Shown piece after piece: positions 3,093 to 58,304 of a stretch of 64,000 nt of DNA. The stretch covers positions 50,484 through 114,483 of IMG/VR virus record IMGVR_UViG_2596583697_000001; one strand, 5' to 3'. How positions within the stretch are numbered: the stretch's first letter is position 1; the number at the start of each line of letters is the position of its first letter. A model generated the notes under the pieces. The model saw only the letters and a program-made list of their open reading frames with translations, was not told the DNA's origin and did not search any database. The translations under genes and the position numbers were made by a program. This stretch comes from a virus (lineage: Duplodnaviria; Caudoviricetes).

Positions 3093-6000
3093 ATGAGAAA
3101 ATACAACACATCTAATTGTCTGCCAAGTATAGCGAAAATGAAAAAGTCATTTCCTGAATTAGTAGAGAACAAAAAGGATTTTACTAACAACAAAAAATAT
3201 CTGTACGATTTTTCAATGCTTAATGGCAAAATTCCGACTGACATTATGGAATCGATTTACGACCAGGCCATGAAACAAACTGGCATTATAGATTGTTTTG
3301 CTGTATGTGACGCTGTATCAAGCACAGAGGACAAGAAGTATTTTGTCTATCTGGACTTTATCCCATACAAGGTAATAAACAAAAATACAGGCAGAACAAG
3401 TTATTGTGTCATGGAACTATCGGCTATACGAATATCAGTCTATGACATGAATGTATACGGCTATGCAGAGAATATCCAAGCGGATTATATAGAAGCTGGT
3501 CACTGGAAAGAGAGCACTTTGACATATATCAACGATATAGAAGTGGCATAGATTATCCATTTCATAGGGAGGTAAGGATATGAAACCTGTTGATTATTTG
3601 ATAACTGATTTACAGAGAATGAAGGATAAAAGAGAAAATATCTGTAAGGAACTTGGTAATGGATACGATTGGATGCTAGTTGAAAGTTTAATATCCATTG
3701 AAAATAAAATTAAACAGACAGCCGAGAGGATCGACAAAATGCAAAACCTATAAAACGATTATTTCATGATAGGGAGATAAAAAGATATGAAAAGAAAATG
3801 GGAAATAGTACATGATTGCGATGGAGACAACGGAGAACCTACTTGCTGGGTTTTAGAAGTAAATCATAACGATTATGGAAAATTTATCTGGATAACGGAT
3901 TCTGCGTTAGGGTTTGATATTGAATACAAAAGTAAATACAGTAATGATATTACTCCTCTTATAACATGTAAAACCTTAACATCTGCAAAAAGATGGGTAT
4001 CAATAAATATAAGATGAAAACCGAATTTTAAGGAGGAAGTTGTTATGCACGGATATGACGTTTATTTCAAAGGTGGAATGAGAGTTTTTGTATCATCTAG
4101 CACCCCCAAAGAGGCCATTCAAAAGGCAAAAATTAAATTTCCCGGAATGGAGGTTATTGGACATAGTCTTAAATGTATAAAAACAAATATTGTTTAATGT
4201 AAATAATATCAGCAGAGTGGAACGGCTTACATAGCCGTTTTAATGCACATGGCAAAGCCATACGGTCACAAGTCCGTAAGCATTAAGGAATGGGGGATTA
4301 AACAATGAAAAATTACAAGGTAACTTTTGAGAGAAGCAATAAAACTATTGGATCAGATGTTTTTACAGCAAATTCCAGACAGGGAGCAGGACATGAATTT
4401 AAAGAATGTTATCGACATGATGTGTATAAAATTTTATCAATAGAGGAAGTCGAGGAACAATAAAATTCTTATTTCAAATTGAAAGGATAAAGAAAAATGA
4501 ACGATGTGGGATATGATACAAGTTTAAAATACAAGGGTTCATATGCTGAGATAAGCGTAAAAACTGCGACACAAGACGGATTAAAGAACTTAAAACCATA
4601 CTATGAGGGGGCGATAGCCTATCATACAAAAGAAAATAACAAAAGTCAAATCGCCTTCTTTTCAGAGGGATTGAATCTTATTAATAAAAGACTAAATTAA
4701 CAATGAATCTATTCATTCTTTTGAAAATATGGAGGCAAAAACATATGAGTTACGATATACAGTTGGTTAATAAAGAAGATGTAAGGATAGGTGACACAAT
4801 TCTATGTAATGATGGAAATATAAGAACAGTGTGCCGAAATAACATTACTAGCGGATTTATGGGGTCGTGTTTATTTGGCGAGTCCTATCGGTTAGGGCAA
4901 GAAAGAGTTAAAAAAATAGTCAATCTGAAATATTAATAAATTTTATTTCCAGTCATAAGCCATTAGAGAATATAACTCTAGTGGCTTTTATAGTGGGTAT
5001 AACACGAAGAAAAAACATATGGAGGATATTATCATGAGAAAAGAATATACAGTAGAACAGATGGCAGGTGCAAGATGGTTTTATACATTCACAGAACCTA
5101 ATGCAAAAGGTGAAAAGATAGTGATGGAGCTAAGCAAATGTATTAATCCAGGTGGAAGTAATGCAATTCCTGTATTATGGAATAAACATGGATATATGGA
5201 TAGGGTTCTGGAAACATATTGGAGTATTCAAACTTATGTGACAGATACAGAGGGATATTGTTATGGAATGTATAATCCTCAAGAGAAACCAGGAAGATAT
5301 GAAATAAATTTCGATTGGATATTTGAAGCAACAGAAGAGAACAAAGAAAAGTTAATTGATGAAGTTTATAAATTGGCATCGTCAGCATATGGAGAAACAG
5401 CAACAGAGAGGAAGCACAGAAAAATTAAAGAATTTGCAGCCAAGGAAAAAGTTGAACTTTTAACAGAGATTCCGGAAGGGTGGAAGAAATTAAAAGGATC
5501 GATGACTGCACCTTACGGATCTGTGTGGGTATCTAACAAGGAACCATTTAAAAGTGGAAACAGAAAAACAGCATTATTGTTAGTTTGTTAAACTATTTTA
5601 GAAAATAGAGGTATTAAAGATGAAAAAATATACGAGAAAAAATTTTTCTGCATATTTGTCTGATTGTGACTATAAAGGTTACAGAACATATGCATGGATT
5701 GAAAATTTAACTATAAAATATTTTTATCTGCAAACAGTAGAGGACTACACAAAGACCTTTGAGACTCTTGCAGATTTGTATGATTATATTGATAACAAGT
5801 AAAAAGTATGGGAAGGCGGTAAAAAATATGAAAACTATAAAGGTGATTTTTGAAAAAGGTAACAGCTTCACAACAAGAATTAATGGGACAGAAGACGAAA
5901 TAAAAGCTTATTATGTTGGGAAGGTCTTTAACTTGGGTTGTGTGGAAGACGATTTACAGAAAGTAATAGGGGTTGAATTTTTATGAATTGCGGATGAAAA

Positions 6001-9000
6001 GTAAGTTTCATTTAGAATGGAGGATTAAAAATCATGACAAACGCATTATTTAATCGTGGGGAAAATGGTCATATGTCAATGCGTGATATGGATCTTGAAT
6101 GGTTGCGTAAACAGGCATATTTAAAATGTAGTTTTGAAAATGCTGATATTAAAAAGATTGATAAAATCGTCAACGGAATTAAGGCAGGTAAAATTAATAA
6201 AAGCAATTTATTTGACGAAGTGCGGAAGCTAACGAAGAATGTAACAAGTGATCATTCTATAGGAAGATGGCAGTGCATTACAGAGTGGTTCAATGATACG
6301 GAATGGTTTTGAAGGTAATGTTTACGAATCAGAATAAAATGCACGTTTAATGGTGAGTAATCGGAGAATATATATCTGGTTGCTTTTTTTATGTTCAAAA
6401 CCAGGAAGGGGATTGTAATGGACGAAAACATAATCATATGCCCAAATTGTAGCCGAAAATTAAGTATCATCAGAAAAGATGGGAATATAAGGAAAGAAAT
6501 TCATTGTAGATGCCGTGATAAATATGGGCACACGATGATCCAATGGGTATCTGGAGCAGGCTATCATTACTTTAGCAATGAAATGGAATGGATTCCAGTT
6601 ATACACGGGTAAATAAAATACATGATTTATTAGGAGGTAAAAATATATGAGTTATTATAGGAATTGGAAATGCTACAGCTATGGCTTATGTGGAAGTGAT
6701 AGAGAATATGATTATCAGGAGCTTAAAGAATACTTTGAAATTGATGGTAGTGACGTTGCATATTGTAAAACAAATATTTTGGAATATAAAGCTGGCAACT
6801 ATTATAGCATTCTCGCCGGTGGACAACTCAATGGTAAAGAATACGGATTTGTTATACTGGAAAGATGAAAGGAAAATTTCAAGGGAGGATATATTTTGAA
6901 TAGAAATAAAATTACTTTATTCGGTGAAAAGAGCAATGTAGTTATTAAAAAGACTGGCTTATTATCCTATGGAGTATATCAAAATGGAACGCTTCTTGCA
7001 AAGTCACGAAAATTCAAGGCATACCAAAATGATATTTTAAGGATTATGTATACTGGAATTGCTTTCGGAACAGGTGATTATATTCTTGAAGCAGAAAGTA
7101 TGAGCGGGATAAAAGAAATTTATAGATGGAAAGGTTAAGATAAAAGATTTTAATGGAGGTCTTATTATGAGTTTAATTGAATATAGGAGTAATGATATTG
7201 ATATGAGCGCATTTAAAGAAGATTTAAAATATTGGAGTAATTGTTGTGGGGAATTACATCACCATGGAGAATATGATATAGAAGAATTTGATTTGCCACA
7301 AGAGTTAAAGCGGGCATATACAGACTTATGGACTGAAGGTGGTGGCTCTTTATGCTATCTTGTTGAATACAAAGGCTTATATGGAATTGCCTTAATTAAT
7401 GAATTTGATGATTGGTTCGCAGAAGATGAGGGAGTGTCCATGGATTCTCTTTATGAACAAATGAAACAGAAGGCCAATTCTTTAATTGATAATGATTTAT
7501 TTAAAGAATCTCAAATTATATGTTCCGAATATGCTGGTTTCAATGAATGTCATGAATTAATAGTTATTCTGCCTACTTATATAGAAGAAGATATATTTAA
7601 TAGAATCATGGATTATCTTGATAAAACAGTTTATGGATTGAAATTGTAATTTAATTAGAAAGGGTAAAGGCAAAAAGCATGATTAAAATGATTGTAAGAT
7701 ATAGAGTAATGAGCGAAGTCAGAAGATTAATTAATATTGCAAAAGAAAAGGTTACTAGTGGAGGAGATGAATACGAATGGTTTGATTATGTAAATAAGTA
7801 CCTTGATTTTATCTGGAATGCTAAATTAATCAATAAGAAAAATATAGATATTTTGTGGAGAGAATTGCAAGATGCAACAAATGAAAAATAGATTTTATAA
7901 GCATATAAAAATATGGAGGTAAAAGGGTGAGTGAAAATATGAAGTTTGGAGAGAACACATATAAACAAATGATATATTTATGCAGACAAGATAAATTAAC
8001 ACCTGATGGAAAAGTTAGATTCAACGTAGGGTTGAAATGGCAACCTATAAATGAAAATTGGAAACCTTATTGTATAAGTGACTTACCCAATACTGTTGAT
8101 AATGGAGAGGATGCAAAACAGTTTACAGGAAGACAAAGGAAAAATGCTATTATATATGCAAAAGAATTGAAGCAAAAATACAATTTAGAAATAGACGAAT
8201 CTCTTATATAGAAAATACAATAGAAAACAGGTTTCATAGGTAGCGAAAGGAGAATAGAGAATAAATGAAAAAGTCAAAATTAGTATTGGAACTTAGCTGT
8301 TGCGTTGGTTACGGTTATATGGCATATATTGAGTTTGGGGCGAAGGAAGCAGTTGTAGACTTTCTGAAAAATTTCTGTATGTGGGGAGGAAGCACAAAAA
8401 CATTTAAAAGCTATAACATGTACGAATTATCAGAGGATGTGATGAAATTTATGACTACTAGATCGTTTAAATCGTGGTTGCTAAAGAACAATGTTGAGTT
8501 GCTTACAAAATACGAAGTAGAATATGATAGAGTCTTAAACGAAGTATTTTTACAAGCGTGACAATAGAAAGCACATTTTATAAACAGAGGAGAGAAAAAT
8601 ATAATGAAAAACGTATTTACGATTTATTTGATTATTAGCATCATAGCATTAAATATACTATTACTAAACATTAAAAAAGACAATGCCAGGCTAAAGACAA
8701 TACTCAAGGAAGCACATTATGCAACGCTTGCAGTAATATCATTTACTCCAATTATACACTTAATTGTCGTTGCATTATCGATTTTTAATAAAGGATCTAT
8801 TGATATTTATGAAATGACTAAGACATGGAAAGAGAGGGAATCATGATAAGCACTGTCAAAGATTATAACAACTCATACAGTTATCAACGAATGCACAAGA
8901 GAAAACAACGTAGAAATTTCATAATATTGAACCGAATTATAGGAAGCATTTTACCGATGCTTTCTATTTTTTCACTCTTTATGATGTCTGATCAGTGTGG

Positions 9001-9565
9001 AAACTGGACATTTGCAGCTTTACTGATTATTATAAGCATGGCTTTATTTATGCAAACAAAAGGAGAATATTAAAAATGAGCAATGTAAAATTTCACTATC
9101 AGAAGAATAAGGAAGGGAAAATCGAAATGTATGCAAATGGTATATACATATCTACATTTGATAACTTTACGGAGATTTTCGCCTTACATAGTCTTTTATC
9201 TTAATACATAGCCTTGTCGGTGATCCGGAAGGATAGGCCGTGCTGCAAAAGTAAACAAGGCATTCCCGGCAGTCTGAAAGTGATTGCTGCTTACCACAGG
9301 AGAATTAGTGGTTGATCTGGCATAGGTCACTAACCGCACATAATTAGCGGTAGATTATTAATAGGAGGTGTTTCGTATGGGGTATGGAGAATTAGAACAG
9401 TGTAAGGACTTTGGCAAGCTGAAGACGGTATTTGATAGTGATATGCTTGGATACTTTGAGAGGCAGCTAGAACGCTATTTAAATGGATCAGAAGATAGAC
9501 CAGCGGTAGTATGTTGGTGGGAAGGTGTATTGAGTACAGAGGAATTTATAAGTCAATGTTCATAA
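3093..9565 (+). CDS. Run of about 20 short hypothetical phage ORFs (e.g. 3093-3551, 3787-4017, 5019-5591, 6034-6312, 7167-7649, 7927-8211, 8265-8561)
   Basis: Consecutive + strand ORFs, most with a GGAGG-like RBS and most separated by the TRAAA-N6-TTTYA site. Confidence 0.7.
4210..4280 (+). ncRNA. Twister-like self-cleaving ribozyme (circularly permuted)
   Basis: AGCAGAGT..P1 (GGAACGGC/GCCGTTTT)..TAATGCAC..hairpin ATGGC/GCCAT..ACGG-TCACAAGT-CCGT matches the twister core segments as I recall them. Confidence 0.7.
4956..4990 (+). terminator. Hairpin / probable terminator
   Basis: AAGCCATTAGAG-AATATAA-CTCTAGTGGCTT-TTT. Confidence 0.5.
9209..9352 (+). ncRNA. Candidate structured intergenic RNA
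   Basis: GC-enriched multi-stem: GCCTTGT..ACAAGGC junction, GGCAGTC/GATTGCT, TTAGTG/CACTAA, ACCGC/GCGGT. Confidence 0.45.
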
Positions 9566-9815
9566 ATATTATAAGAAAATAGGAGGATTATCAAATGAGC
9601 TATGAAAAATTTAAACCAGAAGAAGTAATTGATATTTTAACACAGTTTCAAAAGTATTTGACGGAGGGTAAAGAACTTGAATGCAAACCTACAGAACTTC
9701 TTGGAGCCGTAGAATATGCAAAAGAGACAGTAAAAATGCTAAAACAGTAATAGAAGTGTGCTTTCATTTGGAGAATATTCTAGTGAAACTAGAAAACCAA
9801 ATGAAAGGAGTTTAA

Positions 9816-10376: not shown

Positions 10377-11354
10377 CTGCCAACGAAAGAGATATTTTAA
10401 CTATAAAAAGTAAAAGGAGAATGTGAAATGAAGTTAATAGAAAGAGTTTATGGTTTTGTTATCTATGAATTAGACGAAGTAATGATAAATAAATTTGGAG
10501 GAAAATACTTCCTGTCACAAGCTGAAATATCTGAATATTGGTTGAAAAATCATTCGGTGGAAGAAACCATTTCCGAATTAAAATCATATAATTACGAGGG
10601 TATTTTTCAAACAAGGTTGGAGGCTTATTATCAAGCCAATTTAGTAGAAATGGAACATCAATATAATTTACTTAAAAATAGCATTAAGGAGACTTGTGAG
10701 AAAATGAATAATAGAACTGACGTTAACTGGTATGAAATATCTGAATAAAAACAAGATTATATTGTGAAGATGGAGGTTGAGAAGATGAGAAGCGAAGACA
10801 GATTACAAAGTGTTTATATAGGAGTTGTTGCCGGGATTAAATGTTGTAAAGAAGGGGAAAGGTCAGATTATAACAAAGGGAAGATGGCAGCATATAGCGA
10901 GGTACTTAGCGCAATGGGTATAAATATTGAAGATGTATGCGTTTTGATGGCAAGTGTATGAGCCAATAAATCCACAATTTCAAGCAAGAAAAGGAGAGTA
11001 AACGTGAAAATTAAAGAGAATTTAACAGTAAGAGAAGCAGAGGACTATGCAAAAGAGAACGGATATAATAAGGTGGCATTTAGCCTTAAGATTAACGATA
11101 AATATGTCGTAAGTGGAAAATATTTAGACGCATACTATGATCTCATTGAGATCCCAGTTCTCGGAAGCGGATTTACAAGATTTGCCGATTTATGCAAAGA
11201 ACATGGGGAGCGAAATTTATCTATTGATATTATAGACGAAGAAGAACTTAAAAATAGTATATCTTTTGATTTTATTATCAGGGGTAAATTTGACAGTATT
11301 CCAGAAGAATACAAAATTGCTGAATAAAATCAGGATTTGAATGGAGGTAATATC

Positions 11355-12383
11355 ATGACATACCATGAACAAAATGATATCCAGAATATAAAAAAACTTA
11401 GAAGTATTATATCTGCATTGCCAGCTTATTGCGAAGACTTCTTTCGGGGAATCGAGCCAAGGACTTCCTCGAAGACTAGGATTGCTTATGTGGCCGATCT
11501 GAAGCTATTTTTTGATTATCTGATCAGAAGTGGTCAAGTAAAAGATATGGAGTCAATTACTCTTGATATGCTTTCAGGCTTGAAAATCATTGATTTTGAA
11601 AAGTATATGGAGTGGATAAAATGTTGGACTGATGATTCAGGTAAAGAATATACCAACGGAGAAAAAGCTATTGCAAGAAAGTTGTCTACGTTGAAAGCCT
11701 TCTACAAGTATTTTCAGCAGAACGAAAGGATAGCCACTAATTCAGTATCACTTGTGCAACCACCGAAACTACGTGATAAGGAGATTATCAGGCTTGATAA
11801 CGACGAAATGAAAGCATTTATACAGGCGGTAGAAACTGGAGGTAATTTAGAAGGAAGGGAACGTGCCTTCTTTGAAATAACACAGAAGCGAGACTTTGCA
11901 ATAATCATGTTGATTCTTACCACAGGAGTCCGTGTTTCTGAATGTGTTGGTTTGGATATTAATGACGTAGATTTCAAAAACAGTGGAATTAGAATCTATC
12001 GGAAAGGAGGAAAAGAAGAAACAGTATATTTCAGTGATGACACCAGAGAGGCGTTGGAACCTTATTTAGAAGAAAGAAAACAGACCGAGGCAATTAAAGG
12101 GCATGAGAATGCTCTGTTTTTATCTCTACAGAACAAACGAATATCAACCAGAAACGTAGAGGATTTGATTCCTAAGTACGCAAGGTTGGCAGGAATCCAG
12201 AAGAAGGTTACGCCTCATACACTACGTAGAAGCTATGGAACGGCCTTATATAACGCTACAGGGGACATTTACCTAGTTGCTGGTACATTGGGCCATGCAG
12301 ATGTGAACACTGCGAAACGGCACTATGTGGCATTGGAAGACGAGAAAAAAAGAGAAAATAGAAATGCTGTTAGGCTGAGATGA
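11355..12383 (+). CDS. XerC-like tyrosine recombinase
   Basis: RD..I.L.LTTGVRVSE, RKGGK, TPHTLRRSYGT, LGH....TAKRHY catalytic set intact; RBS GGAGGT before ATG 11355. Confidence 0.92.
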   Translation: MTYHEQNDIQNIKKLRSIISALPAYCEDFFRGIEPRTSSKTRIAYVADLKLFFDYLIRSGQVKDMESITLDMLSGLKIIDFEKYMEWIKCWTDDSGKEYTNGEKAIARKLSTLKAFYKYFQQNERIATNSVSLVQPPKLRDKEIIRLDNDEMKAFIQAVETGGNLEGRERAFFEITQKRDFAIIMLILTTGVRVSECVGLDINDVDFKNSGIRIYRKGGKEETVYFSDDTREALEPYLEERKQTEAIKGHENALFLSLQNKRISTRNVEDLIPKYARLAGIQKKVTPHTLRRSYGTALYNATGDIYLVAGTLGHADVNTAKRHYVALEDEKKRENRNAVRLR

Positions 12384-13888
12384 TGGAAGTGGGTGATTTG
12401 CTCCCAATAAAAGCAGTCTTTGATGAGAAAGAGAGGAAGACATTGTGAAGTATAAAATAAATTGTAAGTGGATACTCAGGCATATTCCGAATTTAATTAT
12501 CAGAGTAATAACTTGTGACAAATATTATATATGTGAAAAGTGTAATTCTATACATCGGAGAGATGGAAAAGAGCTTAGAATGGATATAGATCAGAAGCCG
12601 TCTCTATTATACAAAAGTGTAAGTTTTGAGTGCTATGTTAAACAGCAGCGGGAAGTGGGAGAACTGCTAAGGATGTCAATGTTTAAACAGTTACCATAAA
12701 ACAACCTCTTAATAAGAATGGAGAAAAAACAATATGAGTAAAGATAAGCAGCCGGTATTAAACCACGGAGACAAGATAATTTATAATGAAAACGATCCAC
12801 ATGTATGGTATGATAACATGAAAGAAGCACTTGAAAATGCAGGATTTACATTGTCTAAGGAGGTGGCGTAATGGCAGGACTAATTGTTATTATTTTAATA
12901 GTTGCATATTACAAGTATGCAACTCGTAGGCCTAGATACGGTACCCAAGAGTATCTCGACTGGAAATATAAGAATTACCATGGCGGTGGCGAATATATGA
13001 AGTCATTAGAGAAGAAGAATATGACATGTTCATATAAAGATATCCCAATGACTCCTTCTGAAAAAGAAGCTTATAATAAGCATGAAAGAGAAAATGGAAG
13101 ACCTGGAATTGAATAATCTAAAATTGTAATCAAACCTAGATTTTGTAGAAAGTGGTGAGAACATGTGGAAATATTATATAGAAATTTTGACTGGTAGCTG
13201 TACAGGAGATTATGTTGAAGGAAAAGAGGTCCCAGGTGATGGTATTCCCGTTTGTGCCGATTTAGCAGTAGCTAAGTGGTTTGATTCACCAGATGAATTA
13301 AATAAGTGGGCAAAAGAAAATACATCGTTAAATCTTGAAGAGGGTGAGTATGCAATTTATGGAGTATATTATCCTGAACTAAAGGAGGAAGCGGTATGAC
13401 AATTTGGGAAGCGGAAAAGGAAATTTTGAAAGCGCAAACACCACAGGAGATGGATGAAATTACAAATGGTTTTGATAAAAAGGACTTACAAAACATTGTT
13501 AAATTGCTTGTAGATAGAATGACTCCTGAGAATCTAAATAGAAATGAAACTATCAATGCGGATTTTGATGTCAATGATATCACTAAAGGAAAGAGTAAAG
13601 AATTTATAAGACAGTGGATCGATAAACATTATAACTAAATCGACATTTGATCTTTATAGATATGGAGAGATACAAATGAATAAAATAATCGACTATACGA
13701 TTACCGAATCGGATCTTGTAGGTATGGATGAAATATCTTTGGCCGATATGTTTCTATATGCTGATAGAGATAGAAAAGAATTTGAAGTTGCCGAAAAGAT
13801 TTATTGGTGGTGTGTAAAAGAAATAAATAGAAGATTAGACGCAGGTGAGACTTCTATTTACCAAAATTAACTACAGATTATATTTATA

Positions 13889-14371: not shown

Positions 14372-14422
14372 ATAGTAATTGATAAAAGGATTGTTTCATT
14401 AGTAATAGAAAGAGAGGATGTT

Positions 14423-15232: not shown

Positions 15233-15266
15233 ATAAAATGATTATTTCATGAGTTAGGATAAATAC

Positions 15267-17180: not shown

Positions 17181-17249
17181 AAATAAAGAAAACTGTTGAC
17201 ACGGTGAGAAATTAGTGATATAGTTACGTCAGATGGAAATAAAGAAAAC
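17181..17249 (+). promoter_or_regulatory. SigA promoter bracketed by AAATAAAGAAAAC boxes
   Basis: Box 17181-17193; TTGACA 17196, 17 bp, TGnTATAGT 17219; box 17237-17249. Confidence 0.85.
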
Positions 17250-17288
17250 CAAAAAAACAGATTGGTATGAAAAGGAGGATATGTATAA

Positions 17289-21624: not shown

Positions 21625-21634
21625 AATAAAATCT

Positions 21635-48577: not shown

Positions 48578-49455
48578 CTACCTAATAATAGAGGGAGGAG
48601 AGTAAGCGTGATAAAAGAACTACTAATTTATTTACATATGACATGGGCGAGAGATAAGGAACTGCGCTTGAAATATTCGCTTCTTAAACATCAATCTAAG
48701 ATGGTGGATATTCACGAAAAATATAAGGATTACGAATTTAACAATGGAGCAGCAAGATATGAGTTTGAATATTTACATACCGAAATCATGAACAGATTTT
48801 ATCGTAGGAAGGAGGAAGAATAATGATTTGTGCTTTATGTGGTAGCACTCGTATTGAAATGATTAATCATTTTGAGCAAGGCAAAGTTACCAGATACGGA
48901 CAGTGCAAAGAGTGCTATGGCAAATCTGGTGAAAAGAAAATTACATATGGTGAAGTTTTGAAGAGATTGGAGAGTGAAAAATAGTGTATACATATGAAAT
49001 GGTAAAACTGGCTGATGAGAACGGAAAAACCTACATTTGCGATAGATGCGATGAGATAAGATATTCAAAGGAGAAGGGATTTCATGATGAGAATTTATAT
49101 GAATACGATGGAGATGCAGTTCCAGATATTAAATTAAATGAAATATTACATATTGATTCGTGGAAAGAACTACCTTCAAAAGAAATGACACTGGAAGAAA
49201 TAGAAAAGGCGCTGGGATATCAGATTAAAGTTAGCAACTTTAAATGGAACGATCCACATAATTTTCCGACTAATAATAGAAATGTAATTTGTAAATTAAA
49301 GCAAAATCAAATCTGCTATAGCGGTTATTATGGTCAATGCAACGATAAGTGGATTTTATATATTAACGGTAACAATTTTGCATACGAAAAAGATGATCTT
49401 ATTGGCTGGATTGATGATCCTGACAGTTATGAGTAAACTGTGGTTTTATTGAAAA

Positions 49456-50103
49456 ATGAGAAGGAGGAAGTCATTGAGTTATACAGATATTTTAGGTAGA
49501 GAATTACGAGACGGCGATGTTTGTGTCGGCAAGGGAACTGGTAGGGACGTAAAGGGTATGGACGTAGGAATCTGGTCAGGAAAATCCATTGCTTTTAAAG
49601 GTGGAAATAAGCGTTCAATGGGAGATGTGTTTCTTGTAGTCAATCCTACGGAAGATGAATTGGTAATCAAAAGAGAAATTGAATCATCATTAGAGAAAAT
49701 TGAAAATGAACGGAAAGAACGAGACTCTGTGAATACTATTCCTCTTTCAAAGTTAGAAGTAGGTGGTATTTATAAGTGTACAAACGGTTCTTGTTATGTA
49801 TATCTTGGCAAGCGAAAAGTGACACTACAGAATTTAGGTTATTATCAGAAAAAGGAAGATGTACAGGAGGGACATTGTTTCGTATTCGTCTGTGAGAGCT
49901 ATTCTGACGAAGAAGTCAAAGAGAGTATATTGAGTATCGGTACATATCATGGAAATCATTCTATATCAGTGTTGAAAGGTGGCAAGAAACTAAGCCATCT
50001 TATCAGAAAGGCCGATTTACAATTTCCTATGGAGAACGAAGAGGAAAACCATTCTAGTTCAAAATATAGTTTCAGTTATCATTACAAATTGATGGTTGAG
50101 TAG
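49456..50103 (+). CDS. Hypothetical phage protein
   Basis: 215-aa ORF. Confidence 0.6.
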   Translation: MRRRKSLSYTDILGRELRDGDVCVGKGTGRDVKGMDVGIWSGKSIAFKGGNKRSMGDVFLVVNPTEDELVIKREIESSLEKIENERKERDSVNTIPLSKLEVGGIYKCTNGSCYVYLGKRKVTLQNLGYYQKKEDVQEGHCFVFVCESYSDEEVKESILSIGTYHGNHSISVLKGGKKLSHLIRKADLQFPMENEEENHSSSKYSFSYHYKLMVE

Positions 50104-50987
50104 AGGTGAGAAGATGAATGAAGATAATACCTTTAATATAAATCACGCTGATGTATTTTGCGAAATTAGTAGGAGAATGAAGAATTTTTTAGAGCTTTCG
50201 ATGAGTAAGATAATGGAAGAAGCTTTTGAATTAGATAAGGCGATGGAGGAGGTTGAGTAAGTTCACTAGATTCACTATCATATGAGAAAATGAATGATCT
50301 TAAAGAAAATTTAGAAGAATTATCATCATACGAACCCGATTCCATCAACGACATAAAGAAACGAATTAAATATTGCAAAAGTCCATTAGAATTAAAGCAA
50401 AAGAACAGAAACGGAAGAGGTGATACATATTAAGACATTTTTAAAAGGATTGTTGGCAACGGCAATCGGAATCTTATTGACTACATTTGAGTTTGGATTG
50501 GTTATCTCATTTATAGCAGCCATTGTAGCAGCAATAGTATTTTTGGTAAGTTTACTACCATCGGTAATTATTGGACTCAGGTTTATTGGAATTATAATTT
50601 TGCTACTAATATTACTGTTGTGGATTGCAGCAAATTCAGTAGATGCTTATAGAAAATTAAAAATAAGGGCTGAACATGATTAATAAAAACAAATGGAGTA
50701 AGTACATATGCAGGCAGAGAATTGATAACAAGATAAACAAATTGTGTGGTGTTATTAGGGAATTAAGGAAAGAAAGAATAGAAGGTATTGTGGATGAGTG
50801 ATGATTTCAAAATCAATATTTATAAATGGAAAGGTGAAAATAGAGTAGATCTTGAATTGATTCTCGGAGAATATGCTCCGATTGAATTGGGATTTGAAAC
50901 GGTGGTAGGAGCAAGAGAATTTGCTAAGAAGTTACAATCAGCAGAAGTAGTAAAATATAACGTAAATGAGAGTGGAGAGGTGGAAGA

Positions 50988-51422
50988 ATGATAGATTGTT
51001 TCGATGGTAAATTTGCGTTTCTAAGTAATTTTTATAACTGTCAAGTAACATATAAAGGATTGACATATCAGAATAACGAGGCTGCGTTTCAAGCACAGAA
51101 AACTCTAGACGAAAATGTTAGAAAAGAGTTTACCAATCTGCCACCAAACTTAGCAAAGCGTAAGGGGCGGAGAGTCACTTTAAGACCTGATTGGGAAAAA
51201 GTTAAAGACGATGTTATGTATGAGATCTGTTTGGCGAAGTTTCTTTCAGTGGAAAACCATAAACTGCTTGAATTATTACTTAATACAGGCAGCGAGGAAA
51301 TTGTAGAAGGAAACCACTGGCATGATAATTATTGGGGAAATTGCACGTGCGACAGGTGTAAGAGTATCGAAGGTAAAAATATGCTCGGTAAGATTCTTAT
51401 GGAAATCAGAAGTAAATATTAG
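50988..51422 (+). CDS. NADAR-family protein
   Basis: FLSNFY, EAAFQAQK, AKRKGR, RPDWE, LLNTG, D.YWG, G.NMLGKILM. Confidence 0.88.
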   Translation: MIDCFDGKFAFLSNFYNCQVTYKGLTYQNNEAAFQAQKTLDENVRKEFTNLPPNLAKRKGRRVTLRPDWEKVKDDVMYEICLAKFLSVENHKLLELLLNTGSEEIVEGNHWHDNYWGNCTCDRCKSIEGKNMLGKILMEIRSKY

Positions 51423-51869
51423 AAATAAATGTCCATTTTCTCTTAATTGAAAGGAGTAAATTAATGAATTGGTATCTATACATACCTGTAGTGCTATTGA
51501 CACTGGCACTTATATTACTTGGACTATCTGTGCCGTTGGCAAGTTACTTGGCGCATGTAGAAATGAATAAAGAACAAGGTAAGCCATATGACTGGTGTTC
51601 ATTTAGAACGTTTTTAAAAGAGTTTTACTCACGATTTGATTTAGCCAACACTGATTTCAATACACGATTTAATTCGATTTTTATTAAAAGTGATCAGTCT
51701 CAACATAGGATTGATAGAGCTTATTTACATGCGAGCATTATTAAATTTGATGATTCTAACTGTATGATTTTATATCCATGGAGCTACTTTAAATATTGTA
51801 AATGGAAAAAGAAAATGATTAAAACTAAAGGATCAACAAGGGTTAGAGGTTTGTATAGAAAGGAGAAGA

Positions 51870-52994
51870 ATGAATAATATAGCCGAATGTTATGAGTTGA
51901 CACTTACGCCAAATTATGTGTCTGACTGGACTTTTAATGATGCAGTAAGAGAGCTAATTCAGAATGGAACAGATCAGGAAGTGCTTGATCCAAGTAATAA
52001 ATTTGATATTACATATGATAACAGTAAAAAATCATTAAGATTGACTAACAGCAAGTCCAAGTTAAGTGTAAATACCCTTTTATTGGGTAGAAGTAGCAAA
52101 AGTAATAATGCAGAAACAGTAGGCCAATTTGGCGAAGGCTATAAAATTGCGGCGTTAGTGCTCAATCGCCTGGGCAAGACCTTTACCATTTATAATAACG
52201 AAAAGAATGAAATTTGGGAATCCAAATTTAAGAATAGCGAGAAATGGAAAGAAAAAATTCTTGCTTTCTATGTTTCAAAGAATGAAGCAAGTGATAGTGG
52301 TCTGGTAATAGAAATCAAGAATGTAAGTTACAAGGAATATTCTGATCTTGAAGAAATTTGGCTAGGGTTCTATGAATATGAAAAAATTAATACTACATAT
52401 GGTGAGATATTAACTGATGAATACCAGGAAAATCTTATTTACGTAAACGGACTGAGAATAGGATTCAATGGAGACTTAAAATACGGATACAATTTTAAAC
52501 CTAAGTATATCAAATTAGAACGTGACAGAAAGACTTGTGACGGTTGGGAAGCGAAAATTACTACATCAAAAATGCTTACTGAAGCAATGATTAACGGTGA
52601 TATAGAACCGGAGAAGATTCAGAAAATGATCGAGGAAGACTCGGACGACATTTATCAGATGGATATGATAGGTGACAGAGACAAGATAAAGGAAATGCTA
52701 ATTGACGCATTTGATAAACAGAATGAAAACCCTTTTTCAGTGCCAGTACATACACAAGATGGGGTTGCAAAGGTAAAGGCTTTGGGCGGAAATCCAATTG
52801 TTGTTCCATACAGAGTTTCTACGTTAATAAAATCTGAAACTGACAAGAGGATTCAGGAGCTCATTAACTTTCCAAAATCTACCGCCATGACTATAAGAGA
52901 AAGATTTGACCTATGGTTTATTTCTTACCAGGATAAATTACCAAGTAATGCAAGATTAGAGATTCGTGAACTAATAGATAAATTAGAAATTTAA
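51870..52994 (+). CDS. GHKL/HATPase-like ATP-binding protein
   Basis: AVRELIQNGTD, LLGRSSK, GQFGEGYKIA. Confidence 0.7.
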   Translation: MNNIAECYELTLTPNYVSDWTFNDAVRELIQNGTDQEVLDPSNKFDITYDNSKKSLRLTNSKSKLSVNTLLLGRSSKSNNAETVGQFGEGYKIAALVLNRLGKTFTIYNNEKNEIWESKFKNSEKWKEKILAFYVSKNEASDSGLVIEIKNVSYKEYSDLEEIWLGFYEYEKINTTYGEILTDEYQENLIYVNGLRIGFNGDLKYGYNFKPKYIKLERDRKTCDGWEAKITTSKMLTEAMINGDIEPEKIQKMIEEDSDDIYQMDMIGDRDKIKEMLIDAFDKQNENPFSVPVHTQDGVAKVKALGGNPIVVPYRVSTLIKSETDKRIQELINFPKSTAMTIRERFDLWFISYQDKLPSNARLEIRELIDKLEI

Positions 52995-55183
52995 GATCAA
53001 ATGATTCTTTGGTTCAGATTAAAGGAGAAGATTACATAATGAAATTAGTAAAAGCAATGGAAATTATAAACTATTACAGCATAATGATTTTACAGGATAG
53101 ACCTGACAGACCAGTATCTTTAAGTGATATGGAGGAAAGCGAAGCCGAAGAACTTGAAGAAGCTGTAGATAAAGTGCGAGAATTTATTAAAGAAATGAGA
53201 GGATAACATTTGAAGATATTTGATTATGCAGACTTAGGTGGTAAATATTCCTGGGACTACTCATCAAAAGGTATTACGCCAGAGATTGATGGAATCATGC
53301 CAATCATGGAGACGGGTGAAACTATTGAAATGGGCGACGTTCTGATTATAGAAGATGTTGCATATGCAGTTTCTTCTATGTCTGGGAAAGGTGATACATA
53401 TTATGCGGTTTATGTTGAGAAGTTAAAGAACCAAAATGTATTCTTACATAATGTAGAGCCAGAGGAACAGAACTATACATCGGAAATTACATGCCCATAC
53501 TGTGGTTACGAAAGAGAAGGCTGGGAAATGGATGACGAGGAAGACGAATATGAATGTGGGAATTGTGGTAGTACATTTTCATATCAGAGAGAAGTAAGTG
53601 TAAGTTATTACAGTCAACCGAAATATAAGGCTGTAGCTAAGAGATTGTGAGGTGGTTTATGAATAAAAGATGGGAATATTTTTCTGCGACAAATGTATGG
53701 AAATTATATTTTGATCCTTATGGATTTGGAGAATCGGTAATTGCAGAATTATCAAAAGATGAATGTGGTGACTGGATTCTAAGTTCAGATTTGTTGGGAT
53801 TATATGAAGAATATTTTGATGACTTTAATGACCACGATTGTTTGGAAGTGGTTCAGTGTCAGGTAGAAGATATGATTCACGAGCATTATTTAGGTGACGC
53901 AAAATACTATCAGGAAATTGCCAATAGATTCATGGAGGAGGCATGATGGATTTATATTTCAAATTTAAGTTTGTTTTTGAATATCTGTTGCCTATTATTC
54001 TTATCGGAGCAACCACTATGTATTTCATAATTGAGCATTTTAAGAAACATAAGTAGAAGATTCGGAGGGAAAGTGATGATTTGTCCAAGGTGTGGCAATC
54101 ACATAAGCGAAAATTTTGTAATAAAAAATTGGAGCAAGTATGTAAATTGGACATGTAAATGTGGGTACAGCCCAGCAGAACAGACATTTGAATCTGCTAT
54201 GCAAGAATCTGAGCGTAGGCTCAATGAGTCATTAAAGGAATTGGAGTTAATGAAGTTACGTAATGCTCAAAGCAATAACCCGACTTACCCATGCTGATTT
54301 ACCATAAAACAGATATTTGATAAAGAAAAAGGAGAATAAATGAAGACATTTAGAAACTTTGATGAATGGAAGAAATGGGATTACGCCTTGTGGCGAGCCA
54401 GAAGAAGAGCAAAAACCCTTTTAAAGAGATACCGAAGTGTGGTTGTTATGGCAGCATCACTAATATTTAATCTGGTCAGTAGTTTGCTTGTTTACAGACC
54501 TGAAGGTACGAAATTTAATATGACACCGCTTACTGTGACAGAATGGGTATGTGACATTATCAGCATTATCATATTTGTAATCGGTTGGCTTATGATGTTT
54601 TACGACATTAACAGAGATCAAAAAGAGAAGATTAAAGAAGCCTTAAATGAGTCTATGAAGTAGGTGCTGTTATTTTTGTACCAAAATTTAAGAAAATTCA
54701 CCGGAAAGGAAGAGAAATATGTACATATATCAATCTCATATGGGAGGATTCTTTACAGTCGATTCACCATTAAGCTATTCAGAATGTTTCTGTGAAGAAT
54801 GTTGCGATTCAGATAATTTGATTGGCTATGCTACTACAAGAGATGAAGCGTGGGATTTGTTAAAAAATGATACCGATGTTAATGGAAGTGGTGGCTATGA
54901 TTATGAATACGTAAAGAATTTTATTGAAGCCAATTTTGAAAAAGGGGATTAATAAATTGAACAATATTGGATTTATTATATGGTTAGTATTTTTTGTTTT
55001 GTGGGGATATGAAGTGATAATGCAGAAAAGAAGTGGGTATTCAAGAAGTATGAGTAGAATGTGGACTTTTCAATATGGAATGATAGCTGGTGCGATATTC
55101 CAACTTGTCAAAGTTATATTACATAGAACACTATTGTAACAACCAAATGGCTCTTTTATGGGCTTTGAAAAGGAGGATATTTA

Positions 55184-55897
55184 TTGAAATTTGAATTAAC
55201 AAAAGTATGGGGTTTTAAACATGCCATAAGAGGAATGCGCAACCCTATGAATAGTTGGGATAAAAGCGATTCAGGCGAATGCGATGGTCTATGTGTTGAA
55301 TGTCAATATCTTAATAAAAACTGTGATATTAATGATTATATCGGGGCAAATGATATGAAACTTGCCCAGCAGTTAATTAGGGCAGGTAGCGAACATAGGA
55401 AATTTATGCGTCAGGTATTTGTGTCGGTTGATATCACGGCTCCTCTCTACTGGTGGAAGGAATTTGATCAGTACAAGATAGGCGTTACAACTAATTCCCA
55501 GTCGACCATGCATCGGTTATCAACTACACCTATTACTTTAGACTGTTTTGAGATTGATGATTACGAAACAGTAATTATTGAGAATTATGAAGATAAAGAA
55601 GACTATTTCTCCAATGATGAATTTTGGGCTTATTTAATCACTCATATGGAAACATTAAGGAAGAAACATCTAGAAACAAAGGATAAAAAATATTGGAAAG
55701 AATTGATTAGAATTCTTCCATCGTCGTGGTTACAAACTCGTACCATCACTATGAATTATGAAAATTTATATTCAGCCATCCGTCAGAGGCGAAATCACAA
55801 ACTCACTGAATGGAGTGAATCATTTATTAATTGGTGCAAGACACTACCATATGCTGATGAGCTGTTGTTTTCGGATTTGGATAAGAAAGGGGAATAA
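55184..55897 (+). CDS. ThyX-like flavin-dependent thymidylate synthase family protein
   Basis: GSEHRKFMR, APLYWWKEFD.Y, SQSTMH, ILPSS, NYENL, QRRNHKL.EW; nucleotide-metabolism context. Confidence 0.7.
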   Translation: MKFELTKVWGFKHAIRGMRNPMNSWDKSDSGECDGLCVECQYLNKNCDINDYIGANDMKLAQQLIRAGSEHRKFMRQVFVSVDITAPLYWWKEFDQYKIGVTTNSQSTMHRLSTTPITLDCFEIDDYETVIIENYEDKEDYFSNDEFWAYLITHMETLRKKHLETKDKKYWKELIRILPSSWLQTRTITMNYENLYSAIRQRRNHKLTEWSESFINWCKTLPYADELLFSDLDKKGE

Positions 55898-55900
55898 TTA

Positions 55901-56461
55901 TTGATACTTTTAATCGGAAAAACGGCCAGTGGTAAAGATACGATATTAAATGAAATCGTAAAACTTGGCTATAAGAAAATAGTAACTTATACAACTCGCC
56001 CCATACGACCAGGCGAAGTCGATGGAGTAAATTATCATTACGTTGAGAAAGATGATTTTGTAGAAGGTGTAAAGAACGGATTCTTTGCAGAAACAACTTC
56101 TTATAAAGTCGCAACAGGTAAAACCTGGTACTATGGATCGGCAATCGAGGATTACGATAAGGATAAGGTTATGATAGTCAATCCAGATGGTATAAAACAG
56201 ATCAGCAAGATTAAGTCATTAAATCCAGTAGTGTTTTATATCAAAGCAAATGAAGACGTGATTCGTCAGAGGTTGGATAAAAGAGGCGATAATCGAAAAG
56301 AAGCGGAACGGAGAATTGAAGCTGATGACAAAGACTTCTTTGGTATAGAAAAATGTGTAAACCACATTGTTTATAACAATGGTGGCAGAATTCCAAAAGA
56401 GATAGCTGCAAATGTCGTTGAGACATATTTGAAAACATTAAAGGAGGAAACAGTATCATAG
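55901..56461 (+). CDS. gmk: Guanylate kinase-like protein
   Basis: GKTASGKDT, YTTRPIRPGEVDGVNYHY, YYGS. Confidence 0.85.
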   Translation: MILLIGKTASGKDTILNEIVKLGYKKIVTYTTRPIRPGEVDGVNYHYVEKDDFVEGVKNGFFAETTSYKVATGKTWYYGSAIEDYDKDKVMIVNPDGIKQISKIKSLNPVVFYIKANEDVIRQRLDKRGDNRKEAERRIEADDKDFFGIEKCVNHIVYNNGGRIPKEIAANVVETYLKTLKEETVS

Positions 56462-56907
56462 AAAAGATTAAAATTTACTTGGCCGGATCTATGACGGCAT
56501 TTGGATCAGACAGATTTGAAGAGGGAGACAAATGGAGAAAGGAAGTAGATAGTAAATTATTCCGTATGGCTGATTTAGCTGGTGTTCCAAAAAGACCGAC
56601 CTGTATCAACCCGAATTCCCATTTTAGCTTCCTCGATAATACTACATATAAAACTGATAGAGAAATCAAAGAATTTGATATTTACAAGGCAACTCATAGT
56701 GATTTAATAATTGTCAACTTCCTGGTAAATGACAGCATAGGCACATCGAAGGAGATAGCTATTTGCCATGATAAGGGGATTCCTGTTATCGGATTAAACG
56801 AACAGAACCTAGAGCTGCACCCATGGGATATTGATGACTGTAATAGGATATTTGATGATATGGACGAAATGCTTGAATATGTGGTGAATCATTACTTGAT
56901 GGATTAG
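56458..56907 (+). CDS. Nucleoside 2-deoxyribosyltransferase-like protein
   Basis: KIYLAGSM, D....SD, SIGTSKE, GIPVIG. Confidence 0.75.
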   Translation: MEKIKIYLAGSMTAFGSDRFEEGDKWRKEVDSKLFRMADLAGVPKRPTCINPNSHFSFLDNTTYKTDREIKEFDIYKATHSDLIIVNFLVNDSIGTSKEIAICHDKGIPVIGLNEQNLELHPWDIDDCNRIFDDMDEMLEYVVNHYLMD

Positions 56908-57497
56908 TGAGGAAGGGATATATTATGACAAAAAAATATATAATTGGAATATCTCGAAATGGGGACTGTAGTTTTGTCCGAAAAGACCACAGTGAACATT
57001 ATATGGATTTTGATAGCTACAAAAAAGCAAAAGAAGAAATTGATAATAACATGAAAGATTGTGAGGGAGCATTTGTTTATTGCGTAAAAATTTATATGGC
57101 AAAAAGATGTTTCCAATTGCTAACTAACTGGATTCGCATTACTAAAAGATTATAATAAATACAAGAATTATAACCAAACGAAGATTTTATAAAAAGTGGA
57201 GGTAAATATGATTAATGCAACAATTGCAAATGAAATTGCGAAGAGAAACCAACAATTTGATGAGTTGATTAAAACTCTCGAAAACGAAATTGATACTAAT
57301 ATAAAAGTCGCTTGCTGCGAAGGAAAGATGTCTTGTGGCGTTTTCTTTCCTGTAACAAATCAAAAGGAAACTTTGATTGAGGAACTAACAAAAAGGTTGC
57401 GTGAAAATAATTATAATCTAAGTACATATATGAGCATTAGTGGCTTTGGTTTTACGATATTATGGGATGCTATATGTGGCTTGAAAAGCTAAAGACA

Positions 57498-57513
57498 ACA
57501 CAATATATAGTGT
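57498..57513. promoter_or_regulatory. NrdR box
   Basis: ACACAATATATAGTGT matches the acaCwAtATaTwGtgt consensus; lies upstream of nrdDG. Confidence 0.7.
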
Positions 57514-58304
57514 TAAAAATGTGATAAAAGGGTTATTTTATTAAAAAAATGAAGGAGATGAAAGTATGAAAATGAATTTTCATGGTTGTGGAATGATATC
57601 TAAAGAAGAGATGGCTGTATGTTATAAGGACGACGAACACGTTGTTTTAGGAGATATTGGAGAAGTCACCAAAGAAGAATATAGAGAACTTGATAAAACA
57701 AGACACGAAGATAAATGCGGTTCCGATTATTGGATTTTTGAATTAAATACAGGTAAATGCATAAATGACTTAAACACGTTCGGCTGCTATCGCAGTATTG
57801 ATATTTGATAAAATGAGATTTCTATTAGATTAATGAAAGGAAAAATATGATTATTAGATATATCAGGACTTTATTTTGCAAGCATGATTTTGAACATGTT
57901 AATCATGTGGCTTTTTCAACTGGTGATGTTGACGTTTTTATGTGTAAAAAATGTGGTTGGATAAGAAAAATAAAAGTGTTTTGATTTCAATTAGACAACA
58001 ACGAAAGGATTAAAGAGTGAATAATTTTTAGATGGTAACAACGGTAAACGAGTTAATCTCTGAGCTTCAGAGAATTAAGGATAACGGCCATGGACATACT
58101 TGGATTCTGTGTGGAAGTAACAATGTAACTGACAACAATGACAGAGTAATTGATCATATAATTAGGAAACCAATTGGATTTGATGAAGGAAATAGCTTTT
58201 ATTATGTACTGTGTGGTAGTGAAGCTGGTAAAGGCTGCATGAAATATACCCGTGAGAAATCACGTTGATATAGATATTACATAAATAAATGGAGGATATG
58301 TTTA

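Follow-up and report, generated by a model that had tools for sequence, protein, structure and literature searches.

Candidate crossover sites with position-specific spacers at the accessory gene junctions of a large provirus

Gene content of the window

The stretch of DNA analysed here (the window, 64,000 bp) corresponds to bases 50484-114483 of a virus record of 114,483 bp (Caudoviricetes; IMG/VR record IMGVR_UViG_2596583697_000001, G000 in this work), which is classed as a provirus and estimated to be 69% complete. From this completeness, we estimate that the whole phage, a temperate one, is roughly 165 kb long. The subject of this work is an 18-bp element, made up of two 6-bp arms around a 6-bp spacer, which is found at many junctions between the accessory genes of the window. 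A preliminary description, made from the letters alone, had taken it for the recombination site of an integron-like array of gene cassettes.

About 105 genes were called in the window, nearly all of them on the plus strand, and the first 50 kb of the record hold genes on the minus strand (the structural part). Gene calls throughout are those of a simple in-house caller and are crude. The GC content is 30-37%. Pfam matches in the window include HNH and GIY-YIG nucleases, a GmrSD-domain protein, a PemK/MazF-like protein, an amidoligase, three methyltransferases, a PAPS-reductase-family gene, nrdD, nrdG, a Xer-like tyrosine recombinase located within the array (11337-12383, the in-array recombinase) and a terminal integrase. 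The replication block (35.5-48.4 kb) encodes AAA_24, DnaB-like, DHH/RecJ-like, DNA polymerase III alpha, ERCC4 and NAD ligase proteins. Against public phage records, megablast of 9 kb of the array gave zero matches, and sensitive blastn of the replication block gave only matches of about 100 bp, to polymerase genes, in 7 records.

An 18-bp element at accessory gene junctions

The preliminary description had listed 47 sites of the form TRAAA-N6-TTTYA. This literal pattern is enriched (13 matches against 2.93 expected, standard deviation 1.74; 0 of 100 shuffles reach 13), but only 10 of the 47 listed sites fit it. Unsupervised expectation maximization on the regions from -55 to -5 of the called plus-strand genes of the window recovers the same element without a prior, with arms of 6 bp each, which leads to the refined form ATNAAA-N6-TTTNAT (18 bp, 6-6-6). 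This form is present in 15 exact copies, against 1.37 expected from dinucleotide shuffles (largest 3). Compared with its 10 specified positions, the sites first listed show no mismatch in 14 cases, one in 22 and two in 8, and 3 of them are poor (3-5 mismatches).

When one mismatch is allowed, junctions hold 45 matches (3.37 per kb) and coding DNA holds 18 (0.36 per kb), whereas shuffling each of the junction segments yields 4.47 ± 2.0 matches (largest 11, 500 shuffles). With these two excesses, in exact copies and in junction matches, the motif array at the accessory junctions is real, and the comparison with an AT-matched background that the preliminary description had proposed as a check came out in its favour. 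In the accessory block (3.0-35.4 kb), 32 of the 64 junctions carry a site with at most one mismatch and 45 of the 64 with at most two. At the former threshold, sites were found at 7 of the 20 junctions in the block at 48.5-58.3 kb and at none of the 9 junctions between replication-block genes, which agrees with the absence reported there before.

The sites are located between the stop codon and the next ribosome-binding site (RBS), with the right arm 0-10 nucleotides ahead of the latter. The overlap with the stop codon described earlier holds in part: the first triplet of the 16-mer originally proposed is often the upstream stop, but this is not the case at 5995, 6335 and 27169. The element presents dyad symmetry, with two 6-bp arms that are alike and half-site centres about 12 bp apart, and no conservation was found beyond the 18 bp, since the flanks of site pairs homologous on neither side stand at background identity. 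Positions 3 and 16 are free, and only 5 of the 15 exact sites would allow a Watson-Crick or G-U pair between them (judged by eye), so two half-sites read on duplex DNA fit better than a hairpin. A promoter reading was dropped by reasoning, because transcription would then begin within the Shine-Dalgarno sequence or downstream of it. Concerning the spacers, 85 distinct ones were counted among the 88 junction sites of the whole record, as the preliminary description had indicated.

Related genomes and their arms

Four large relatives (G001, G003, G004 and G005), all of them incomplete records, were found by searches with the polymerase, the in-array recombinase and the amidoligase. The arms of the window are also present in G003, G004 and G005, where 26, 9 and 9 sites match exactly and the reversed pattern yields 2, 1 and 0. 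The replication block of G001 shows 77-84% DNA identity with that of the window, while its accessory region has almost nothing in common with it. This genome has an arm pair of its own, GTNAAA-N6-TTTGAC, with 25 matches at one mismatch or fewer, 20 of them at junctions, against 1-3 matches in the other four genomes. The geometry is therefore kept and both arms change together between lineages, as is predicted for a change in the specificity of a binding protein. The 6-6-6 geometry is fixed in the unsupervised model and in every lineage examined. Within the wider group, GAAA-N6-TTTC ranks first or second among the enriched junction dyads of lineages A, G, C, F and D; this does not apply to lineage B.

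Other observations concern the surroundings of the sites. The lineage B loci L049-L057 are without arm-spacer-arm sites, and their junctions carry CAGA-N7-TCTG and overlapping dyads (7 against 0.02 expected). In the early region of G001 (L007-L012, 58-112 kb), a short purine-rich motif, nGnGA, regularly stands between the right arm TTTGAC and the RBS and may belong either to the site or to the translation signal; a weaker short purine-rich motif also follows the right arm in the window, before the RBS. Moreover, sites of the same family lie at block boundaries of the minus-strand late region, outside the window (G000 16870, 21810, 25090 and 35472).

Spacer conservation between genomes

The window and G003, G004 and G005 form a mosaic of gene-sized blocks. 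The numbers of identical spacers per genome pair are 47, 44, 34, 46, 26 and 34, against 4.5-7.0 expected from column shuffling (largest 17). The 12-bp cores (positions 4-15) common to the early regions are collinear without exception (24/24, 22/22, 20/20, 20/20, 15/15 and 14/14), and five spacers are common, in order, even to G001 despite its different arms. Besides, 25 further window sites with up to two mismatches have cores that recur in the relatives. Among 43,884 site pairs without homology in either 60-bp flank, 145 have spacers identical at 6 of 6 positions, against about 30 expected by our own arithmetic from the per-position background identity.

The genes on both sides of the common cores point in the same direction. 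Genes were called on both sides in both genomes for 72 of the 115 common cores, and in 49 of these both neighbour genes are without a mutual blastp match (one side is related in 18 and both in 5), although blastp may miss a relationship between some of the small proteins scored as unrelated because of their short length. Of the 109 stretches from one common core to the next, 27 are related by neither blastn nor tblastx and have unequal lengths, 48 are partly related, 33 are homologous and 1 is too short. Examples of slots in the window are 14382-15233 (GmrSD-domain), 15233-15949 (GIY-YIG), 22479-23461, 30696-30906, 30906-31629 and 51424-52996. The best reading of these comparisons is that the 6-bp spacers act as position-specific addresses of gene slots, whereas the preliminary description had treated their differences as incidental.

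The search for a core anywhere in a relative is a weak measure, as it finds 29 of the 45 sites with at most one mismatch but also 961 of 3000 random 12-mers from junctions. A scan of the viral collection with one address and degenerate arms gave at least 118 stretches; among the matches listed only G003 and G005 were recognisable, and nearly all the stretches listed were on unrelated contigs, so a 16-letter AT-rich pattern is too unspecific.

Where homology ends

Identity profiles anchored on the sites were built after sorting the site pairs by which flank is homologous. The 22 pairs homologous on the left only keep an identity of 0.86-1.0 across the left arm, spacer and TTT, then fall to 0.59 at positions 16-17 and to 0.36-0.45 further out. 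The 16 pairs homologous on the right only show background identity as far as position 3 and values of 0.94-1.0 in the spacer and to its right. Hence, the AAA-N6-TTT core stays and either side is replaceable from the arm outward. It should be noted that an in-register design of this kind is biased towards pairs whose site has moved together with the homologous flank, which weakens the profiles as support for recombination sites; for this reason, BLAST block ends were classified separately, with the sites disregarded.

The early regions yielded 87 unique block ends, of which 36 are in or at a site (25 in the expected arm, 4 in the spacer and 7 in the other arm), 19 at an RBS or start codon, 14 at stop codons and 18 elsewhere. 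The sites are the largest class of block ends, but not the sole one. By our own arithmetic, about 41% of the boundaries fall in the roughly 2.5% of the sequence made up by sites, against 22% in the roughly 4% made up by RBS/start windows. The preliminary description had proposed to check whether the breakpoints of relatives fall in the spacers of the sites. Breakpoints at sites are observed, with homology ending in the arms, but 51 of the 87 boundaries are outside the sites and only the 4 mentioned are in a spacer.

A recent event is visible in Logan assembled contigs (X1-X4). Contigs X1 (27900-28733) and X3 (28566-28733) show 0 differences from the window and then both diverge into the same unlike sequence, and X2 ends before the site at 28719-28736. 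The point of divergence, 28733, is the end of arm, spacer and TTT, and the new sequence opens like a right arm and RBS. Two single boundary events read by hand are each ambiguous alone. As to the origin of these contigs, window 27900-28733 was found unchanged in contigs of three soil-metagenome runs, one of which may be the source sample, so that they give no independent evidence of habitat.

An invertible PAPS-reductase-family gene

The sites at 28719-28736 (GTAACG) and 29002-29019 (CGTTAC) have reverse-complementary spacers. A scripted flip of 28725-29013 restores an exact junction site and opens a continuous open reading frame of 433 amino acids. A protein of the public collection (P0001, 433 amino acids) is 100% identical to the plus-strand part (97% of the query) and agrees with the minus-strand part at 58 of 59 positions. 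Contig X4 (about 92-95% identical) has the opposite orientation, with the joint at 28725|29014, where 10 letters fit either side. The ends of the inversion lie where arm and spacer meet. Inversion at the sites, which the preliminary description had predicted among other rearrangements, was thus confirmed for this 289-bp segment. The gene stands among methyltransferase and amidoligase genes (window 28681-30137).

The viral collection holds 42 related loci (L035-L076): 31 are ON (gene in one piece), 9 are OFF (first 59 codons on the other strand) and 2 have a truncated gene. Sites were considered paired when the junction site and the in-gene site had spacers reverse-complementary at 5 or more of the 6 positions. 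Among the 39 assessable loci, 22 have paired sites (9 OFF, 13 ON) and the 17 without a pair are all ON, so that OFF occurs only with paired sites (Fisher p = 0.0025, not corrected for relatedness). The ON and OFF forms differ exactly by swapped inner arms, as exchange inside the core predicts. At least three complementary spacer pairs occur across lineages, together with a fourth in the window, even though one partner lies in coding sequence; this co-variation of partner spacers is the strongest sign that identity between the spacers of both partners is required. The invertible gene is spread across a wide group of phages of 100-220 kb, in which it may provide a phase-variable DNA-modification function.

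Candidate enzymes

Three PF00589 genes are encoded in G000: the in-array one, one in the late region (16988-17851, minus strand, outside the window) and the terminal one. The in-array recombinase matches PF00589 with an E-value of 7.2e-37 (profile positions 2-171 of 172) and PF02899 with 4.3e-07. Its solved relatives include XerA (E 2.6e-22), XerD (E 2e-19) and IntI4 (E 1.9e-16), and in the alignments with XerA and XerD, read by eye, the catalytic positions Arg, Lys, His-x-x-Arg, His and Tyr are occupied. The possibility that it is an inactive recombinase like MrpR found no support, given that the catalytic positions are present and that MrpR is not among its 11 PDB matches (E <= 0.001). Copies 84% identical are found in G003, G004 and G005. 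In G001 no counterpart was found at E 1e-5; its array holds a weak, divergent PF00589 match of its own. None of the 5 records examined for PF00239 (resolvase) has a match.

In the wider group, internal PF00589 genes are present in 12 of the 12 genomes examined from lineages A, G, C and F. In lineage B, G017 and G022 hold the terminal integrase only, and G023 holds none. The sequences suggest that the actor would be the in-array Xer-like protein of 348 amino acids or the second internal enzyme, and not the host Xer. The terminal integrase is a second candidate, but it is more likely the integrase of the prophage.

Two neighbourhood observations can be added. The late-region sites adjoin the gene of the second internal tyrosine recombinase (G000 16988-17851). 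Furthermore, a gene of 84 codons directly after the in-array recombinase gene (window 12382-12708) is absent from G003, G004 and G005, where the next common gene directly follows the recombinase gene.

Proposed mode of action

We consider it probable that the 18-bp elements are core-type crossover sites of tyrosine (Xer-like) site-specific recombination and that their spacers serve as addresses. The arms would be recombinase half-sites, common to all the sites of one phage lineage. A recombinase dimer would bind them, and strand exchange would take place across the 6-bp spacer, which would have to be identical in both partners. As each junction has its own spacer, a site would recombine productively only with the same address in a partner genome, belonging to a resident prophage or to another phage infecting the same cell, or with one of the rare second copies within its own genome. 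A single exchange at an address would yield a hybrid made of one genome to the left of the address and another to the right. Exchanges at two neighbouring addresses (formation of a cointegrate and then its resolution) would replace the gene between them without disturbing the order of the genes or their reading frames. An invertible switch would result where one address occurs twice in inverted orientation, as at the PAPS-reductase-family gene. Both the tyrosine recombinase as agent and the exchange between co-resident genomes are inferred from sequence. The view of the preliminary description that recombination sites delimit single-gene cassettes is supported by the collinear spacers, the homology limited by the arms, the inversion and the co-varying spacer pairs, but not by the block ends outside the sites. 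We put forward more tentatively, as something that could be the case but that we would not yet favour, a dedicated and self-encoded system of addressed recombination, in which a Xer-like enzyme, private junction addresses, slot-for-slot gene trade and in-gene on/off switches would come together.

Several points weigh against this interpretation. The block ends outside the sites indicate that other processes also shape the mosaic. Window segments 10412-10763 and 8858-9537 are in the opposite order in G003 (85955-86307 and 86878-87555), that is, the cassette is in a different slot, and in G003 the left boundary of the homologue of the 10428-10748 gene is at the RBS and not in the site. This relocation between slots is not explained by the sites, and since it was the sole relocated cassette inspected and is not bounded site-to-site, the reordering via sites proposed in the preliminary description was not borne out. 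Duplicate spacers within a genome are not depleted (4, 7, 4 and 4 against 2.6, 3.8, 2.5 and 1.4 expected), which gives no sign of selection against self-recombination, and our own idea of a selection against duplicate addresses in one genome is accordingly not supported. Each arm has only about 5 of its 6 positions specified and is short compared with the half-sites of tyrosine recombinases, which usually measure 9-13 bp. With regard to the enzyme, the contrast between lineages in sites and recombinases is a single phylogenetic contrast and points to no single enzyme; 18 of 35 further records have some match to the in-array recombinase, but only one reaches 45% identity and the rest 35% or less, which is of no use for a test of co-evolution; and a host Xer enzyme is a possible actor. 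Finally, the whole case is a comparison of natural sequences.

Alternative explanations

The alternative that survives best, itself unlikely, is that the sites are short conserved linkers in which general or relaxed homologous recombination, carried out for instance by the AAA_24/Sak4-like protein of the phage and by functions of the host, crosses over within 12-18 identical bases and needs no dedicated enzyme, the arms being kept for other reasons, for example regulation. Crossovers in identical cores would likewise keep the core and put the boundaries in the arms, and boundaries are also found at other short conserved sequences, such as the 19 at an RBS or start codon. An AAA_24 (Sak4-like) ATPase is encoded in the replication block, and the shuffling at PeSL in T4-type phages, as outlined in PMC2839356, is a precedent. 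Nevertheless, the 6-6-6 geometry, the dyad symmetry and the joint lineage-specific change of the arms are left unexplained, as is the co-variation of the inversion partner spacers over just the core, and the sites hold more boundaries per base than the RBS/start windows. Moreover, a crossover length of 12-18 bp is very short for homology-driven exchange.

Less likely still is that the sites are operators in the first place, where a dimeric protein would block or tune accessory transcription in the lysogen and recombination would be a by-product. The binder would be a repressor, possibly one with a tyrosine-recombinase fold like MrpR, or the sites would work like the stoperators of mycobacteriophage L5. 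Such a role would suit the location of the sites, which at no fewer than half of the accessory junctions follow a stop codon and precede an RBS, as well as the dyad symmetry with half-site centres about 12 bp apart, and a record that is classed as a provirus and encodes integrases. It would also have a parallel in MrpR, which, according to PMC10516654, binds a 15-bp repeat at about ten SPbeta promoters. However, an operator does not need a position-specific spacer, yet the spacers are collinear where both neighbour genes have been replaced, and neither the inversion nor the spacer co-variation nor the exact swap of arms is predicted. Besides, the in-array recombinase keeps its catalytic residues, and MrpR is absent among its 11 solved relatives. 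A dual role of the sites, in recombination and in regulation, is possible.

It is very improbable that the motif is an RNA hairpin ahead of the Shine-Dalgarno sequence, with a function in processing or translational control. In its favour, the inverted arms are in the transcribed strand, directly before the RBS, and the outermost pair changes from A..T to G..C in G001. However, the limited pairing at positions 3 and 16 leaves only two separate helices, of 2 and 3 A-U pairs, around a 6-nucleotide loop; the sites occur with both gene orientations, including the minus-strand late-region boundaries; and a hairpin predicts neither collinear spacers nor DNA inversion. Lastly, a by-product of AT-rich composition, stop codons and A- or T-rich junctions, which the frequent coincidence of the 16-mer's opening triplet with a stop codon and the low GC content would suggest, is hardly credible in view of the excess over shuffled sequence in both counts, the recovery of the motif without a prior and its presence without stop overlap.

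Comparison with known systems

As candidate crossover sites, the elements have a close analogue that is already described; the preliminary description had known of none. In the account given by PMC13141974, as far as drawn on here, the pdif sites and dif modules of Acinetobacter plasmids present two recombinase arms around a 6-bp spacer, with spacers that differ within a replicon. The same account describes pdif as 28 bp long, with distinct 11-bp XerC and XerD arms that lead to polarity and alternating C/D modules and with host XerC/XerD as the enzymes, and gives a two-step model for dif modules, in which a cointegrate formed at one address is resolved at the next. The 6-bp spacer rule, the inversions and the replacement of single modules are likenesses to the window phage at this level of description, and the two-step model fits its gene-slot replacements. 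Rearrangement between identical or near-identical spacers is another: the inversion pair of the window is reverse-complementary, and exchanges across genomes keep the spacer. On the other hand, the window sites are 18 bp long, with two alike 6-bp arms, no XerC/XerD-type polarity and nothing conserved outside, and the phage encodes Xer-like candidates of its own. Unlike pdif, of which small plasmids carry few modules, 45 sites with at most one mismatch lie in 64 kb, with a single-gene grain. The system works like dif modules, but its different arms, polarity and enzyme place it outside that family, and it does not belong to the integrons either.

The integron-like character claimed in the preliminary description failed on two counts, since there are no attC-like folded sites and the in-array recombinase is nearer to XerA/XerD than to IntI4. 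The attC sites, which are recombined in the form of folded single strands with extrahelical bases, are imperfect palindromes of greater length, whereas those of the window are 18-bp cores of the duplex type. The likeness consists in mostly single, promoter-less genes of the same orientation, with a site at the end of each gene, and in a tyrosine recombinase. However, the cassettes of the window keep their slot and differ at many slots, with no entry at one attI. Neither an attI nor a Pc promoter was identified, although no search aimed at an attI-like unique site was made. Integron components have been reported in phage genomes, according to the outline in PMC9892861.

The PeSL of T4-type phages are described in PMC2839356, in the part relevant here, as an early promoter plus a terminator stem-loop at which insertions, deletions and replacements in relatives begin and end. 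Like the window sites, as far as this description goes, they are conserved intergenic elements in the hyperplastic accessory regions of a large phage. In contrast, that part of the source attributes the exchange to the repeats themselves, and implies no arm-spacer-arm structure, no address and no recombinase. The 18-bp element is too small for a promoter and a terminator, and forms no stable helix as judged by eye. In the case of Bacillus phage SPbeta, SPBRE is, according to PMC10516654, a 15-bp motif at about ten promoters bound by MrpR (YopR), a master repressor with a tyrosine-recombinase fold and lost catalytic residues. Both phages are large and temperate (SPbeta from Firmicutes) and carry a short repeated intergenic element. 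Unlike MrpR, the protein of the window looks catalytically intact and has no MrpR match, and the sites, which show recombination footprints, follow a stop codon and precede an RBS instead of lying at mapped promoters.

In tyrosine-recombinase switches and shufflons, inversion between inverted repeats toggles a gene, also inside coding sequence. These use a few dedicated repeat pairs, whereas the switch of the window makes use of the family of gene-junction sites. The way in which the addresses appear to work resembles the spacer variants of cassette exchange with heterospecific lox/FRT sites, a laboratory design in which each variant recombines only with its like. To our knowledge, cassette exchange by spacer variants has not been described as a natural system in viruses. 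A full-text literature search, with subscription journals outside its scope, brought up no account of minimal arm-spacer-arm sites that are arrayed in a phage and carry collinear, position-specific spacers.

Coordinates of the features

The arrays, the candidate enzymes, the parts of the invertible gene and the individual sites are collected in Table 1.

Table 1. Features of the window, in window coordinates. Mismatches of sites are counted against ATNAAA-N6-TTTNAT.
Feature	Position	Strand	Remarks
Main accessory array of small plus-strand genes with 18-bp junction sites	3548-34165		32/64 junctions (<=1 mismatch)
Second, sparser array downstream of the replication block	49432-57825		7/20 junctions (<=1 mismatch)
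In-array Xer-like tyrosine recombinase, 348 aa, candidate enzyme	11337-12383	+	PF00589, PF02899
Left boundary site of invertible segment: arm, GTAACG, degenerate arm	28719-28736
Inverted segment, 289 bp: RBS and first 59 codons of PAPS-reductase-family gene, OFF here	28725-29013	-
Right boundary site, within coding sequence: arm, CGTTAC, degenerate arm	29002-29019
Rest of PAPS-reductase-family gene	29014-30137	+	PF01507 E 3.8e-23
Terminal tyrosine integrase, cut by contig end	62624-64000	+	PF00589 E 1.5e-18
Site, 1 mismatch	1858-1875
Site, exact	3750-3767		core also in G004, G005
Site, 1 mismatch	4014-4031		core in G003, G004, unrelated flanks
Site, 1 mismatch	4460-4477		core in G003, unrelated flanks
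Site, exact	5994-6011		core in G001, G003, G004, G005
Site, exact	6334-6351		core in G003, G004, G005
Site, 1 mismatch	6613-6630		core in G003, G004
Site, 1 mismatch	6865-6882
Site, 1 mismatch	7638-7655		spacer common to G003
Site, exact	7881-7898		core in G001, G003, G005
Site, 1 mismatch	8220-8237
Site, 1 mismatch	8564-8581		spacer common to G003, G005, G001
Site, 1 mismatch	9750-9767		spacer common to G003
Site, 1 mismatch	10745-10762		spacer common to G004
Site, 1 mismatch, directly upstream of recombinase gene	11324-11341		core in G003, G004
Site, exact, directly downstream of recombinase gene	12407-12424
Site, 1 mismatch, end of gene absent in G003, G004, G005	12696-12713
Site, 1 mismatch	13129-13146
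Site, 1 mismatch	13634-13651
Site, exact, left border of GmrSD-domain slot	14382-14399		interval to 15233 unrelated in G003, G004
Site, exact, left border of GIY-YIG slot	15233-15250		interval to 15949 unrelated in G003, G004
Site, 1 mismatch	15949-15966		core in G003, G004
Site, exact	16305-16322
Site, 1 mismatch	16738-16755
Site, 1 mismatch	21626-21643		kept with downstream gene in G003, upstream gene in G005
Site, exact	23461-23478		core in G003, G004, G005
Site, 1 mismatch	23908-23925
Site, 1 mismatch	24447-24464
Site, 1 mismatch, away from any stop codon	27168-27185
Site, 1 mismatch	28437-28454
Site, exact	30137-30154
Site, 1 mismatch	30332-30349
Site, exact	30696-30713		interval to 30906 unrelated in G003, G005
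Site, 1 mismatch	30906-30923
Site, 1 mismatch	31629-31646
Site, 1 mismatch	32479-32496
Site, 1 mismatch	34148-34165
Site, 1 mismatch	49432-49449
Site, 1 mismatch	52996-53013
Site, exact	54304-54321
Site, 1 mismatch	55142-55159
Site, 1 mismatch	57173-57190
Site, exact	57524-57541
Site, 1 mismatch	57808-57825
Site, 1 mismatch	60773-60790

The slots contain nucleases, methyltransferases, toxin-antitoxin-like genes and many unknowns. In the accessory region, a Gp49/HigB-like and HTH_3 gene pair (window 1201-1850) and the PemK/MazF-like gene (17289-17840) are probably toxin-antitoxin-type or defence-related cargo.

Implications for phage mosaicism

Phage mosaics with breakpoints at gene boundaries are an old open question, usually explained by random illegitimate joins sieved by selection or by homologous exchange at short common sequences. 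If the addressed system proposed here is true, it would be a natural counterpart of the engineered cassette exchange with spacer-variant sites, and it would provide an enzymatic basis for the idea of linkers in the modular theory of phage evolution. If the enzyme and the rules hold, minimal 18-bp sites with programmable spacers could also be a compact recombination toolkit. For the phages themselves, site swaps may help to explain how mosaics arise without broken genes, and the site system may govern the reshuffling of their accessory gene sets. These large temperate phages appear to carry crossover sites at single-gene spacing, with addresses kept among relatives that have different genes, which makes the question of the mosaics directly testable.

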